64,000 nucleotides of DNA from Candidatus Eiseniibacteriota bacterium (GTDB lineage: Bacteria; Eisenbacteria; RBG-16-71-46): NCBI GenBank assembly GCA_963707915.1, contig OY970178.1:1088001-1152000 (forward strand), given 5' to 3'. The stretch's first letter is position 1, and each line of letters opens with the position of its first letter. The notes under the pieces are model-generated. The model was not told the DNA's origin and did no database searches. It saw nothing but the letters and a program-made list of their open reading frames with translations. The position numbers and the translations under genes were made by a program. Of the stretch, positions 737 through 7,415 are shown in pieces.

Positions 737-1874
737 CGCCTCCGCGGGGGAGATGCCGCCGGGGGCCCGGGAGCGGAACGCTGCGAGACGCTGGAGCCCG
801 GCCTACGTCAGCCCGTAGCGCTTCGCCCGGTTGATGAGCGTCGTGCGCGGCAGGCCGAGGATCCGGGCCGCCTCGGTGCGCGAGCCGCGGGCCTGGGCGA
901 GCGCCTCCCCCATGCGGCGGCGCTCGGCCTGCTCCAGTTCCTCGACCAGCGTCGTCGGGACCTCGGAGTTCTCGAGCTGGAGACTCTCGGGCGTCACCTC
1001 GTGATCTTCCGCACCCAGCAGGACCACGCGCTTGATCACCGAGCGCAACTGGCGGATGTTGCCCGGCCAGGAGTACCCGGCGAGTCGCCGGATCGCGGCG
1101 GGCGACAAGCGCACCTGCCGCTTCGCCGCCGTGCAGGCCTCCTGCAGGAAATGCTCGACCAGCAAGCCGACATCGTCCCCCCGCTGTCGCAGCGGCGGCA
1201 GCACGATCACGGCGTGGGCCAACCGATAGTAGAGGTCGATCCGGAACCCATCGCCCCGCTCGAGCGCGGCGCGCTCGCGATTGGTCGCCGCGATGATCCG
1301 CGTGTCCACGGCGACATTGGAGTTGGAGCCCACGCGCCGGACCTCGCCGGTCTCGAGGAAGCGCAGCAGGCGCGACTGGAGCTCGACCGGCATCTCGGCG
1401 ATCTCGTCGAGGAACGCGGTGCCCTTGTCGCAGACCTCGAACATGCCCGGCTTGTCGCGGCTTGCACCCGTGAACGAGCCCGCCACGTGGCCGAACAGCT
1501 CGCTCTCGATGATCTCCCGCGGCAGCGAACCCGCGTTGATGGCCATGAACGTGCCCTTGCGCAGGGAGAGGGCATGGATGCCCCGCGCGATCAACTCCTT
1601 GCCGGTTCCCGACTCGCCCAGGACCAGCATCGGCGTCTGGCTCGCCGCGAGCTTGGCCACGTCGTCGAGCAGGGCCAGCATGGCCGGGTTGCGCGTGACG
1701 AGCCTGAAGTTCTCGAACGCCCATGCCGCACGGCGGTCGACGTCCGTCGAGCGACGCGGGCGACGCGGCGCGTGCCGCTCGTCGGCCAGGGCCGCGTCGG
1801 CCACCCGCCCGGCGGCTTCGCCGTGCGGCTGCACCTGAACCGCGCCGGGTTCTCCGGAGAGCTCCGGACTTGAG

Positions 1875-3103
<1,229 letters not shown>

Positions 3104-4604
3104 GACTCCATCCTCTCAGGCAATGGAGCCTCCGGGAAACCCGGCGCGGTTCACACCAGCTTCTCGATCCGCGCCTTCGCCTCGGCCAGCTTCGCCTCGG
3201 CGCCCATCCCGTCAAAGTGGTTGCGCGCAGCCTGGTAGGCTTCGAGAGCGCCCTTGCGATCCGCGTAGGCGCCCGAATGCGGCCCCAGCAGCCAGTCCCC
3301 GTAGGCCATCCAGAGCTTGCCCCACTCGTAGGGGGTCGCGATCTCGTCGAAGAAGGCGAAGCCTTCGTCGAACCACTTCCTGGCCTCGTCCGGCCTCCCG
3401 GTGGCACCCGCGCTCAGAGCCATGATTCGATAGGTGGCGGCTTCTTCGTAGCGGTCGCCAACCCTCTGAAAGTGCTCCAGGGCGGACTTAGCTTCGGCGT
3501 AGGCCGCTTCGTGGCGGCCGAGGAGGCAGTAGCACTCCGCTACCCGACGGCGGAGATCAGCAACGACATCGCCCTTCGGGAACACGGCCAGCGCCTTTCG
3601 GTAGACCTCTTCGTACTGAGTCAGTGCCCCGGCCGCATCGCCGTGCTCCAAGGTCACATCACCCAGATACTCGGCGGCGAGGAGTGCCGCTCGCGATTCC
3701 CGGGAAGGCACGTCCCATCCCGGAATCGCTCGACAGAGGTCCGCCGCCAGAGTCCACCTCCCCTGATGCATCAGGGCGGCAGCCTTTATCAGCTTCGCGT
3801 AGGACAGCGCTGATTGGTCCTCCGAATCGCCTCCGCTAGCAATGCACGTGTCAATGATCTGGAGTGCCTTCTCAATACTCCCACGTCTCCAGTGAAGCAT
3901 GGCCACGCCGCGGCGCGCGTGGCTAAGTTGCCTCCGATTGCCAGCTGCTTCGTGAATCTGCAGCGAGGCCTCGCTTGCCTCCATTGCCTCCGCCCATCTG
4001 CAGAACACACGTTCAAGCATGGCGCGGTTTTCGACCGCAATACCCTCACTCGCCTTGTTTCCCGAACGTCGGGCCGACACGAGACCGTCGAGTGCAAGAT
4101 CGCGCGCGGTCTTGAAGTCGCCCAAGATCGTGTGCGCTGCAGAGAGTTGGATTGTGCAATCCGCAAGAAGATGGGAATCCGGTTGCGTGAGCAGGCGCTC
4201 CCTCAACTTGCTCAATCTGCGAATCGCCTCCTCGGGCCGATTAAGTAGCCACAAGCTTGTTCCCTGCAAGAGTCGAACGCGACAGGCAATTTCGGGCAGC
4301 CTCTGTAGGAGTTCAGGGCAACGCGCCTCAGTGGTCTCTGCCAACTCGAGCGCCTCCGCGTAGCGCCCAACGGAATTCAAGACAGCGACCTTTGCTATCT
4401 CCGCTCTCAACACAATCTCTGCAGTCAGGAACTTGCCTAGTGGCTCAAGTGCAGCTAAGAGACTCATAGCTACGCGGGCCTCGCCCGCAGCAATCAAGTC
4501 CTCGCAGAGTCGGATGGCGGATTCAGCCAAGGGCTGCTGCGCCTGCTCCAAAGGCCCTTCCATCAGGAGCTTCATGAGCGAGGCTGCGCGATCAAGCACT
4601 CTGG

Positions 4605-5081
4605 TCATCGCTTCACCCACGGGCGAGGCGCACACGGCGCAACCCACACTCGCGCAGGAAGCAAGGCACTCAGTGCCACAGTGGCCAAGCTGACAGAGAG
4701 ACCGCTGGGGGCAAGAACAGATGGGAACCACACTCGGCGCGGGAGAATGAATCGGGTTGTAGGGGGTACGTCTGGCTCCCCCATCTCCTGCGTCGGCTTC
4801 GGATCTCCTGGCGTGAGCCGCGGCGCGATGATCCTGGCGCCTCCCTCCCGTGGGTCAAAGACCAGCGTCGCGATCAGGAGCAGTGTGGTCACCATCGCCA
4901 CCCCGACACGAGGATGCCCCTTCGCTGGCGCCCTCGGAGCCCTGCCTCCGTGCGAATCCGGCGTCGCTGCCTCCTCCAGATCGGTCCCGAAGAACGCAAA
5001 ACGGCCCTGCGCCGACGGCAAGGGGCCATCAGCGTAGGGCCGGGGGCAAGTCTCGGTTCGGAACGGAGGGGGTGCGGCCAT
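4605..5081 (-). CDS. Small hypothetical exported peptide precursor (start uncertain: ATG 5081, ACG 4964 or an internal GTG/ATG)
   Basis: Basic stretch, hydrophobic VGVAMVTTLLLIATLVF, possible cleavage after EGGA, Pro/acidic core PGDPKPTQEMGEPDVPP, hydrophobic tail. TGA overlaps the ATG of the TPR activator (ATGA, 4605-4608). Confidence 0.55.
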   Translation of the reverse strand: MAAPPPFRTETCPRPYADGPLPSAQGRFAFFGTDLEEAATPDSHGGRAPRAPAKGHPRVGVAMVTTLLLIATLVFDPREGGARIIAPRLTPGDPKPTQEMGEPDVPPTTRFILPRRVWFPSVLAPSGLSVSLATVALSALLPARVWVAPCAPRPWVKR

Positions 5082-5116
5082 GAGAATCCCGATCCAGACT
5101 ACCGGTTCACCTGACG
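4990..5116 (-). ncRNA. Putative structured leader or small RNA (long hairpin followed by intrinsic terminator)
   Basis: Starts about 6 nt after a -10 box. Pairings CGUCAG/CUGAUG, CCGG/CCGG, AGUCU/AGACU and GGAUCGGGAU/GUUCCGAACC close a loop containing CCCCCUCC; then a GC hairpin and GUUUUGCGUUCUU. Confidence 0.55.
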
Positions 5117-5122
5117 CATATG

Positions 5123-5151
5123 AGCCTAGGCTGGCGATGCCGACCGGTCAA
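5123..5151 (-). promoter_or_regulatory. sigma70-type promoter for the leader/peptide/TPR-activator transcript
   Basis: TTGACC-17 nt-TAGGCT on the minus strand. Confidence 0.75.
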
Positions 5152-5190
5152 GCCCCATTTCATCCGCTGCGCACCGCACTCCCATATGCC

Positions 5191-5222
5191 AAAGAGGCCA
5201 GCCCGTGCGGGGCTGGCCTCTT
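5191..5222 (-). terminator. Intrinsic terminator after the M16 peptidase pair
   Basis: Perfect 13 bp stem AAGAGGCCAGCCC/GGGCTGGCCTCTT with 5 nt loop, ending in TTT on the minus strand, 33 nt after the stop. Confidence 0.8.
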
Positions 5223-5255
5223 CGATCCGGGCCTCCCGGGCCCTGCGTCCCTTCC

Positions 5256-7415
5256 CTACTTCGCCGCCGGCTTCTTGAACAGGTCGTCCGCCAGCGTGGG
5301 ATTCAGCGTCACGTTCGTGACCTTGGCATCCATCACCGGCTTGTCGTCCAGGAGCGTCTTCTCGCTGTGCGGGTACTGGATGTTGCCGACCGGCTTCCAG
5401 TCGCCGAAGACCACCGTGGTCTTCGCCGGTCCGCCGCCCATGCCCTCCCCCATGTACTCCATGCGGGCGATCGCGCCGTTGGGGGCGAAGTAGAGCAGCC
5501 AGTCCCGCGTCGTCTCGCTCTTGACCAACGCCACGCTGCAGGTCAGGCCGTCCACCGTCTTCGGCTCGTCCAGCGCCTGCACCTGGTAGGCGGCGGGCTC
5601 GGCGAACAGCCGGAAGAACGAGCGTTCGTACTGCTTCTTCAACTCCTCGCCTGCCTTGGGCTCGTCGCGCAGCTGGCCCATGCCGGCCATCCAGCCGCTG
5701 GTCCCGTCGAAGCCCTGCGAGAACTCGCCCATGGCGAGCTTGCGCGTGGCGAGGACGCGGTCGGGCAGCCGCCACTGCGTCACGCTGGTCATCGCCATGG
5801 ACTGCCCCTGCATCGTGATGACCTCATCCTGGTTGAGGCCGATGCTCTTGACCGCCGCCCAGGCCGCGCTACCGCCCGCCAGGCCGGCGGCCTTGGTGAG
5901 CAGCGACTGGCCCTTCGCCAGCGCCTCCGGACCGGCCTCGCCGACCGGCAGCGCCAGCTTCGAAGCCGGCGGCGGGATGCTGATGTCGGCGCGCTCGACC
6001 GGCAGGCCCATGCTCTCGAGCGGCTTCTCGAACTCCTTCTCCTTCCCCACCACCACGGCCACGAACTCCGCGGGGCGGATCTTGCGCTTCGCCGCCTCGA
6101 GCACGGTGGTCGCGTTCACGTCCTCGAGCGCCTTCTGGTAGCGCTCAAGGAAGTCGAGCGGGTAGCCGGTCATCTCGTAGAACGCCGAGCGGAACAGGAT
6201 CGCCGAGGGCTCGGCGAAGCTGAACACCAGGCTGTTCACCACGGACTCCTTGGCCACCTTGAGCTCGGCGTCGGTGAACGGCTCCTCGGTCACCCGGGTG
6301 GTCTCCTGCCGCAGCAGGTCGAGCGCGGTGAGGGCCGAGTCGGTGCGGGTGAGCGAGTAGGCCAGGAACACGCCGGGCCGCGCGAAATCGGCACCGGCCG
6401 CCGCGCCGGCCGAGTAGGCGAGCCCGCGCTCGGTGCGGATCTTGTTGACCAGCCGCGACTGGAAACCGCCGCCCAGGGCCATCTCGCAGACGGTCATCGA
6501 GGCGTAGTCGCGGTCGTCGGCGCGGAAGCCCAGGTGCGAGATGATGATGCCGGACTGGGTGACGTCCTCCTTCGGCGCGAACACCAGCCGGGCCTTGGCG
6601 ACGCCAGGCAACGGCGCCGGCGGCACCGGCGCGGCATCGCCCTTCTTCCAGTCGCCGAACTTCGCGGCCAGCAACTTCTTCATCTCGGCGGACTTGAAGT
6701 CGCCGTAGACCGCCACCACCATCCGGTTGGGCTGGAAGATGCGCGCGTGGAGCTTCTGGCAGTCCTCGCGCCCGATGGCCTCGACGGTGGCGTACTCCGG
6801 CTTGCGCGCGTAGGGGTTGTCCTTGCCGTAGACCGACTCGGTCGAGACGCGGATCAGGATCGGGATCATCTCGTCGTTGCGGCTGGCGATGCCCTGCCGC
6901 AGGCCGACCTTGGACAGTTCGATCTTGTCCTTGGGGAAGTCGGGCGAGCGCAGCACCTCGGCGAACAGCGAGAGGACCTCGGCGGTGTTGTCGGCCAGGC
7001 AGCGGAAGCTGCCGCTGGCCTGGTCGTTCGACACGCTGGTCGAGATCGAGGCCCCGATGGCCGCCATCCGGTCGTCGAGCCAGTCGCCGCTGTGCGCGGC
7101 GCTGCCGCCGCTGCGGATGACCTCGCCGGCCAGGTCGCCGAGCCCGGCCTTGTCCGCCGGGATCCACAGCGGGCTGGACTTGAACAGCGCCCGCGCCCGC
7201 ACGACCGGCAGGTCGTGGTTCTCGAGCAGGAAGACCACGACGCCGTTGGGCATCAGGTAGCGCTCGGGCTGGGGCGCCTGCACGCGGCGCAGCTTCTCGG
7301 TCTTGAGCTGCTTCGGGTCGAACTTGGCGTCGTCCTGCGCTCGCGCGGGGCTCACCGCGACGAGCGCGAGCAGGCCCAGAAGGGCCACGCGGAACATCGT
7401 GCGTGCGGTCGTCAT
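5256..7415 (-). CDS. Exported M16B (pitrilysin/insulinase) peptidase, non-catalytic subunit, with an extra C-terminal domain
   Basis: Signal peptide; PNGVVVFLLENHDLPVV, LGGGFQSRLVNKIRTERGLAYS; no HXXEH; extra C-terminal region of about 220 aa. Confidence 0.85.
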   Translation of the reverse strand: MTTARTMFRVALLGLLALVAVSPARAQDDAKFDPKQLKTEKLRRVQAPQPERYLMPNGVVVFLLENHDLPVVRARALFKSSPLWIPADKAGLGDLAGEVIRSGGSAAHSGDWLDDRMAAIGASISTSVSNDQASGSFRCLADNTAEVLSLFAEVLRSPDFPKDKIELSKVGLRQGIASRNDEMIPILIRVSTESVYGKDNPYARKPEYATVEAIGREDCQKLHARIFQPNRMVVAVYGDFKSAEMKKLLAAKFGDWKKGDAAPVPPAPLPGVAKARLVFAPKEDVTQSGIIISHLGFRADDRDYASMTVCEMALGGGFQSRLVNKIRTERGLAYSAGAAAGADFARPGVFLAYSLTRTDSALTALDLLRQETTRVTEEPFTDAELKVAKESVVNSLVFSFAEPSAILFRSAFYEMTGYPLDFLERYQKALEDVNATTVLEAAKRKIRPAEFVAVVVGKEKEFEKPLESMGLPVERADISIPPPASKLALPVGEAGPEALAKGQSLLTKAAGLAGGSAAWAAVKSIGLNQDEVITMQGQSMAMTSVTQWRLPDRVLATRKLAMGEFSQGFDGTSGWMAGMGQLRDEPKAGEELKKQYERSFFRLFAEPAAYQVQALDEPKTVDGLTCSVALVKSETTRDWLLYFAPNGAIARMEYMGEGMGGGPAKTTVVFGDWKPVGNIQYPHSEKTLLDDKPVMDAKVTNVTLNPTLADDLFKKPAAK

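Follow-up and report, generated by a model that had tools for sequence, protein, structure and literature searches.

A conserved leader RNA ahead of a sigma-54 activator operon in one family of Eisenbacteria, a candidate ribosome-gated transcription attenuator

What does a folded leader RNA do when a terminator-like hairpin stands inside it, ahead of the genes that it precedes? The question is raised by a locus in a 64,000-nucleotide (nt) stretch of DNA from Candidatus Eiseniibacteriota bacterium (GenBank assembly GCA_963707915.1, contig OY970178.1, positions 1,088,001 to 1,152,000), which is called the window here and in whose coordinates all positions are given. Along the minus strand of the window the order is a promoter, a hairpin P1, a second hairpin P2, a U-rich tail, a third hairpin P3, an open reading frame (ORF) of 96 codons and the gene for a TPR protein. 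An earlier note on this DNA had described a structured promoter-proximal leader with an intrinsic-terminator-like hairpin ahead of a peptide gene and an activator gene, and this description stands. The note had also offered two ideas about its function, an attenuator and an antisense switch, of which the first holds and the second does not. We lean towards the reading that the leader is a ribosome-gated transcription attenuator, placed ahead of a three-gene relay that consists of an upstream ORF (uORF), a small secreted protein and a TPR sigma-54 activator. The feature that was underrated before is the frame that begins at an AUG in the loop of P1. It is open through the terminator in nearly all relatives, which points to a translated leader and not to a purely RNA-based switch.

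The evidence that carries this reading comes first of all from the uORF. The earlier note had drawn attention to an in-frame AUG (5081-5079) in the loop, to a GGGA (5090-5087) in the stem and to the frame that follows, which reads MAAPPP..., and all of these are found. The GGGA lies on the minus strand within the 5' arm of P1 and resembles a Shine-Dalgarno (SD) sequence. From the start codon at 5079..5081 (minus strand) the uORF extends to the start of the downstream gene (4896..5081, minus strand), in frame with it and with no stop in the window's copy; the distance is 186 nt, a multiple of three, and the frame counts 158 codons up to the stop at 4605. For comparison across 35 leaders the start codon was fixed by rule, as the AUG, or else the GUG, nearest upstream of a C-rich motif, and it is AUG in 31 leaders and GUG in four. 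In 34 of the 35 loci the frame of this codon (frame 0) has no stop up to a point at most 16 nt from the main start, whereas the other two frames are open in 14 and 18, and shuffled versions of the leaders are open in 0.41 of cases on average. Clustering at 70% identity gives 19 clusters, with frame 0 open in 18 of the 19 representatives versus eight of 19 in each other frame, and the product of the shuffle probabilities over the 18 open representatives is 1e-7. Even a 30-nt deletion in one relative (G007) leaves the frame intact.

The uORF is 42-55 codons long, and its end is as characteristic as its course. In 19 of the 35 loci it ends at +1, where its stop overlaps the next start codon as AUGA, and in two loci it ends at -2, as UGAUG. 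It is fused in frame with the next gene in nine loci, the window included; single loci end at -16, -4, +5 and +8, and one (L057) has an internal stop, in the P2 loop. In a relative where the small ORF is absent (G004), the uORF overlaps the activator's own ATG by ATGA instead. No selection on the peptide is visible in these leaders, since synonymous and nonsynonymous differences stand at 46:229 in frame 0 versus 79:196 and 81:220 in the other frames, and differences by codon position (134/146/112) show no third-position excess. The body of the peptide is wholly different between genera and leaves a weak N-terminal pattern, M-x-x-[SFIL]-P-x-P, which arises because a conserved RNA motif is read in two registers. 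The comparison suggests that the uORF is probably translated, and that it is kept for being translated and not for a product, the peptide being free to drift.

The second line of evidence is P2 (5002..5042, minus strand), a stem-loop of the intrinsic-terminator type within the uORF, recognised by RNAalifold and by covariation, which is directly followed by the U-rich tail UUUUGCGUUCUU (4990..5001, minus strand). The GC hairpin (5042-5002) and the U-rich GUUUUGCGUUCUU after it had been pointed out in the earlier note; they are present, and they recur and covary in relatives. With the family-wide alignment RNAalifold finds P2 unaided, with 15 pairs of which 12 show compensatory changes. All of 18 pairs occur with at least two Watson-Crick types (603 of 674 cells canonical), and cognate arms of P2 pair at -30.1 kcal/mol versus -19.8 kcal/mol for non-cognate arms, a value that no permutation reached. 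At least five U are found within 12 nt after P2 in 34 of the 35 leaders, although these loci contain 18% T overall, and echoes of P2 on the reverse strand have two to three U in the equivalent 12 nt. The hairpin and its tail end about 80-100 nt past the start codon, and the linker between P1 and P2 is C-rich, ACUUGCCCCC. With these properties P2 would be expected to terminate transcription. An antiterminator, in which the 5' part of the leader pairs with the 5' arm of P2, beats non-cognate pairings only in the genus of the window (g1; ranks 0/15, 0/15, 0/15, 1/15 and 4/15), with a genus-level permutation p of 0.52. The absence of a conserved antiterminator outside one genus fits a ribosome acting as the antiterminator.

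Ahead of P2 stands P1 (5049..5100, minus strand), with a 5' arm at 5100-5086, a 21-nt loop at 5085-5065 and a 3' arm at 5064-5049. It is the part that survives of a 90-nt hairpin (5116-5027) proposed in the earlier note: the whole 90-mer folds much as its shuffles do (minimum free energy, MFE, -29.5 versus -27.3 +/- 2.9 kcal/mol; z -0.74; 44 of 200 as good), while the inner 52 nt (5100-5049) recur in relatives. The outer base of the proposed 90-mer competes with the 5' arm of the terminator. The whole 147 nt fold weakly better than shuffles (z -1.91; 8 of 200 as good). RNAalifold predicts P1 within the genus, and in ensembles computed for each of the 35 sequences P1 has a mean free energy of -21.6 kcal/mol. 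In the same ensembles the G-rich, SD-like stretch 7-13 nt upstream of the start codon is predicted paired in 34 leaders and the 3' arm in 31, and the start codon is predicted unpaired in 28 and the C-rich motif in 26. This motif, CCCCCUCC at 5065..5072 of the minus strand, has the family consensus UCCCCUC and lies 7-12 nt past the start codon. It occurs in two registers relative to the AUG, the spacing shifting by non-multiples of three, and is therefore a feature at the level of RNA. Among the unpaired bases of the leader, conservation is limited to the C-rich motif and the uORF's start codon. P1, a simple stem-loop, varies in its stem sequence by genus, and the invariant unpaired core and multi-helix aptamer of a metabolite riboswitch are not seen in it, so far as known ligand classes go.

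The promoter can be read from the sequence as a -35 box TTGACC (5146..5151, minus strand) and a -10 box TAGGCT (5123..5128, minus strand) with a 17-nt spacer, so that by its boxes it is of the sigma-70 type, and the transcript would start near 5116. The pattern TTGnnn-N16-18-TAnnnT is found at the same leader position in 35 of 35 leaders, and in all of them the uORF start codon lies 40-56 nt past the end of the -10 box. A sigma-54 promoter within the leader was considered by eye only and rejected, as the GG and GC of the P2 loop are 6 nt apart; in sigma-54 promoters the two are usually spaced by 10 nt. Upstream of the leader a minus-strand gene for an M16 peptidase ends at 5256. A terminator-like hairpin at about 5222-5190 of the minus strand (GAAGAGGCCAGCC...GGCUGGCCUCUUU) directly follows the peptidase gene and separates it from the leader promoter.

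The leader corresponds to no catalogued RNA. No Rfam 15 family covers it at the gathering threshold, the best overlapping model being Scr3202, which scores 23.2 bits (E 0.54) where 52 are required; the earlier note had recognised no SRP, tmRNA or RNase P signatures in it. The sole Rfam match in the 64-kb window is ALIL (2709-2825), and neither a tRNA nor a tmRNA was found there. A blastn search with the region detected it in three of seven genomes of the same genus and in none of 33 others. Two covariance models (CMs), R1 built from four sequences and R2 from nine, were then run over 89 genomes of the family; distant leaders were aligned by CM, the MAFFT alignment being out of register in P1. 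R2 matched 27 places in 22 genomes. By their context these are 21 leaders (20 genomes, 11 genera), four reverse-strand echoes of P2, which are left out of counts where this is stated, and two false matches. The CM matches L014, L017, L019, L021, L022, L026, L035 and L038 were rejected as coding sequence or terminator-only, and L006, an Opitutus locus from a metagenome-assembled genome that was one of four found by an exact-pattern scan, falls within coding sequence, lacks both promoter and terminator and is ascribed to chance. The leader was not found in 13 genomes of the other two families of the order, nor in 91 genomes sampled from 16 other families of the phylum, and it is thus seen only in one Eisenbacteria family.

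Further loci came from metagenomes, where a scan with an alignment of the downstream TPR domain (A7) gave 37. R2 was applied to 28 of these; the nine omitted are loci where the protein match begins inside the protein and no upstream DNA is at hand. The leader stands upstream, on the correct strand, in 18 of the 28 (three of the 18 are cut at a contig end). Ten had no R2 match: eight in which the upstream DNA, at less than 435 nt, stops short of the leader, and two (L072 and L082) with divergent leaders that were spotted by eye. The TPR activator family is present in 53 of the 89 family genomes and in 23 of 28 genera, and among 30 activator loci taken from these genomes, 11 further ones with enough upstream DNA have a promoter and a leader of like design. 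As divergent leaders lie beyond the reach of R2, it gives a minimum count. Conservation of the frame, of the start codon and of the stop-start overlap extends over at least 14 genera. Since the genes upstream of the leader vary by genus, the unit that is kept is the promoter, the leader, the small ORF and the activator.

The attenuator that we favour would work as follows. The sigma-70-type promoter would start the RNA near 5116, and P1 would fold with the SD-like GGGA of the uORF paired and with the start codon and UCCCCUC exposed in its loop. P2 and its U-rich tail, about 40 nt past the start codon, would act as an intrinsic terminator. If no ribosome is on the uORF, P2 would form and transcription would end near 4990, leaving an RNA of about 125 nt. 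A ribosome that starts on the uORF and trails the polymerase would melt P2 and allow read-through, so that translation would suppress termination. In most relatives this ribosome would stop at the UGA that overlaps the next AUG and would be handed over by termination-reinitiation. As to how P1 opens, our guess is either a kinetic competition of 30S binding with P1 closure or a factor acting on the C-rich loop. Published findings make these steps plausible. Tight coupling is needed to keep the terminator from forming at the pyrL leader peptide, according to an excerpt of PMC5021804, and a terminator that falls in the first 100 bp of a coding region can be efficient, according to one of PMC4824070. 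In Mycobacterium tuberculosis, the extracts of two reports describe uORFs with NUGA or URRUG overlaps and termination-reinitiation, with ppe2 depending on its uORF (bioRxiv 10.1101/2022.06.01.494293; PMC11260477).

Several points weigh against this account. Each of its functional steps is drawn from sequence, and a simple consensus scan of 4500-5500 picked up neither promoter nor terminator. Among the public sequencing runs listed there is none of RNA, and four DNA entries have small shares (0.05-0.08). When given the family-wide alignment, RNAalifold finds P2 only and does not recover P1. In the pair counts fitted by CM, which speak for P1, 86.7% of the cells of the P1 inner helix are paired and four of its seven pairs are altered on both sides, and the whole structure has 85% of cells paired versus 68% in shuffles and 37-45% with partners slid (observed values reached by 0 of 500 shuffles), with the P1 counts leaning towards the model because the alignments were fitted to it. 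With P1 predicted to be stable (about -21 kcal/mol) and the SD paired, efficient initiation on the uORF is not obvious, and the conserved UCCCCUC has no role explained within the attenuator model. Thirteen further divergent loci, a biased set that serves as illustration only because their start codons were picked partly for open frames, include 12 that fit, with the +1 overlap in eight and a fusion in four, and one (L082) whose uORF stops 55 nt short of the main start. Over all 48 loci AUGA is found in 27 and UGAUG in two, and the uORF reads past P2 in 47, L057 with its stop in the P2 loop being the exception; L057 and L082 are thus two loci that break the rule. The in-frame fusion in 13 of the 48 would place an extension ahead of the signal peptide. 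Lastly, the window's own copy may be decaying, having an activator split by an IS3 element, AAG for ATG and a P3 loop with no GGA.

A different function for the same RNA is that of a trans-acting small RNA (sRNA). The RNA of about 125 nt that ends at P2 would then be the product, with the C-rich loop as a seed against the G-rich ribosome binding sites of other mRNAs, either alone or beside a role in cis, in the manner of sRNAs derived from attenuators. A conserved promoter and terminator of its own speak for such an RNA, as does the conserved UCCCCUC that is predicted unpaired in 26 of the 35 leaders. The spacing of motif and AUG, which does not change in threes, and the proline codon, which is always CCU or CCC, suggest a constraint at the RNA level; CCU and CCC are rare proline codons in high-GC genomes. 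The genomic setting argues in the other direction, because in every case the element goes with this one operon, being present in all inspected bacterial enhancer binding protein loci with enough upstream DNA, and each cassette has a single copy; in G019, which has two copies, they precede two paralogous cassettes. A frame selected to stay open past the terminator is also something that a pure sRNA does not need, and the 94.8%-complete genome yielded no Hfq gene. We regard the trans-acting sRNA as unlikely, and we would give an equally small chance to a bolder combination, in which P1 shows the start codon and UCCCCUC as a docking site to a trans factor (RNA or protein) that gates ribosome entry to the three-ORF relay through its internal terminator, and in which the 125-nt product doubles as a regulatory RNA with a C-rich seed. 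Such an arrangement would be a new class of cis-regulator.

The third hairpin brings in another candidate, a translational operator that is controlled by a factor and involves no attenuation. P1, P2 and P3 would bind a protein such as CsrA, or would stabilise a long 5' untranslated region; the uORF would relay ribosomes, and P2 would not terminate. P3 (CGGAG-loop-CUCCG; 4935..4950, minus strand) lies just ahead of the ancestral SD and shows a compensatory switch between relatives, GGGG/CCCC versus GGAG/CUCC. In 20 of the 35 leaders a hairpin loop directly ahead of the main SD carries a GGA, in 31 the main SD itself contains one, and GGA is mildly enriched over the leaders (176 versus 149 +/- 8.8 expected, z 3.1). 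A csrA gene is present in the genome (91 bits; L049). The P3 loop often reads A-N-GGA-U about 12 nt ahead of a second GGA in the SD (AAGGAG), for example in L016 and L029; a hairpin loop of this form together with a GGA in the SD is the classic layout of a CsrA/RsmE site. The loop GGA is missing in 15 of the 35 leaders, the window included, and the U-rich tail that follows P2 in 34 of 35 and on this strand only is hard to explain unless P2 terminates. We therefore hold an operator of this kind to be quite improbable.

The antisense switch of the earlier note fares worse. There the C-rich loop was to pair in cis with the downstream SD or with ACGGAGG and so to gate translation. In the window the pairings exist as described: CCCCCUCC (5072-5065) pairs with GGAGGAGG (4977-4970) at seven of eight positions, a pairing that the MFE structure of the 147-mer uses, and CCUCCGU (5068-5062) pairs with ACGGAGG (4951-4945) at seven of seven. 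Strong duplexes of loop and SD are also predicted at some loci (G073, -23.6; G019a, -19.1; window, -16.3 kcal/mol). Against this, conservation of GGAGGAGG fails already among the three closest relatives, and ACGGAGG belongs to P3, a hairpin conserved in its own right, of which it forms one arm. Cognate duplexes compared at 21 loci also show no advantage, either over non-cognate ones (-11.8 versus -11.4 kcal/mol; genus-level permutation p 0.26) or over shuffled loops (z averaging about 0), all of which makes the switch very doubtful. Another partner for the motif was tried and set aside: GAGGGG, which is complementary to UCCCCUC, occurs in 14 of 46 loci (e.g., L030, L034, L067) near +75 in the small ORF and encodes E-G after the signal peptide, and the duplexes average -13.8 versus -11.7 kcal/mol in control windows, too weak to claim. 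A functional small protein of about 50 residues as the product of the uORF, for which the conserved open frame and the weak N-terminal pattern might speak, is scarcely credible in view of a peptide body that differs completely between genera, a pattern that stems from the RNA motif, and the lack of synonymous excess and third-position bias.

What the attenuator would control can be read from the genes behind it. The small ORF (96 codons; 4605..4895, minus strand) encodes a protein that matches no Pfam family, with a signal peptide and the conserved motif G[DE]PD.P, and its stop overlaps the activator start as ATGA at 4608-4605. In relatives it has about 100 codons and a variable tail (e.g., L010:1701-2012); it is absent in G004 and G066. 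This small protein could be a secreted peptide that is sensed by the TPR domain, in the fashion of an RRNPP pair. Where relatives have the start ATG of the small ORF the window has AAG. The ATG of relatives follows AAGGAG (L010:1680-1710), and this SD is lacking in the window at 4893-4935. In the window, the small ORF can now be entered in frame with a charged N-region only by way of the uORF fusion; this may be decay after insertion of the IS element. The intact activator of G004 has the domains TPR, Sigma54_activat, AAA_lid_14 and HTH_8. In the window the N-terminal TPR part (residues 1-485; 3154..4608, minus strand) is cut off exactly between residues 485 and 486 by an IS3-family insertion sequence at 1836-3153, with orfA/orfB, the ALIL frameshift pseudoknot (2709-2825) and 24-nt inverted ends (1836-1859 and 3130-3153), and the C-terminal part of the activator lies at 1852-806. 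The cargo of the leader is therefore broken in this genome. Third-position GC is about 0.64-0.82 in the small ORF and the activator gene versus 0.87-0.96 in several neighbours (L044-L048). The genome G019 carries two full paralogous cassettes (L028 on contig 3 and L040 on contig 6), both with a uORF and a UGAUG overlap.

If this account of the leader is correct, it offers a clean comparative case of a bacterial uORF that is selected for its translation and not for its product. An intrinsic terminator inside a uORF would extend ribosome-dependent attenuation to the uncultivated phylum Eisenbacteria and to the control of sigma-54 activators. The hosts are uncultivated soil bacteria, in which ribosomes probably decide whether a regulator operon is read. 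The covariance model and the 48 example loci describe a family that is not in Rfam. Among the matches listed in a literature search on Eisenbacteria (titles and abstract starts), none concerned RNA regulation, and among those listed for leader peptides, intrinsic terminators, translational coupling and enhancer binding proteins, this arrangement before a sigma-54 activator was not described.

Among known systems, the phage P4 CI and P1 C4 RNAs, to which the earlier note had compared the leader, are also small structured RNAs from the 5' part of a transcript, and this one could in principle pair downstream as they do. The analogy does not carry further, as nothing phage-like surrounds the locus, whose neighbours are M16 peptidase genes and the activator gene, the complementarity is not conserved and the region is a translated frame by our reading. 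The attenuators of trpL and hisL share with the proposed mechanism a promoter-proximal terminator under the control of leader-frame translation. Their leader peptides, however, are short and stop before the terminator, with runs of regulatory codons and alternative hairpins, none of which are seen here. The translated leaders of M. tuberculosis such as ppe2 come closer, so far as the extracts of the two reports describe them (bioRxiv 10.1101/2022.06.01.494293; PMC11260477): uORF and main start share 4 nt or 1 nt, translation of the main ORF is ascribed to termination-reinitiation, an upstream structured RNA controls the uORF, and premature termination is linked with translated leaders. An overlap of the NUGA or URRUG type is likewise present in relatives of the window (29 of 48 loci), the window itself having the in-frame fusion. 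In these extracts, termination in M. tuberculosis depends chiefly on Rho, and at ppe2 the element is a B12 riboswitch, whereas the present leader has an intrinsic terminator in its uORF and no recognisable aptamer. The nearest parallel in design is pyrBI of Escherichia coli, with its leader frame pyrL. There, as excerpted in PMC5021804 (citing Roland et al., 1988), a leader frame, about 45-55 codons in length, passes across an intrinsic terminator close to the promoter, a following ribosome nearby prevents the hairpin and no alternative antiterminator is needed. The present locus likewise has an apparent intrinsic terminator that separates its promoter from the first structural gene, and a leader frame that passes through this terminator. 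It differs from pyrBI in having a C-rich linker in place of a U-rich pause tract before the terminator, a uORF whose SD is locked in a hairpin and which ends in a stop-start overlap, and a sigma-54 activator as cargo in place of pyrimidine genes; the two share no sequence similarity and come from different phyla. The leader described here is thus a real, conserved and previously uncatalogued element, in which a known principle of attenuation probably appears in a new arrangement.

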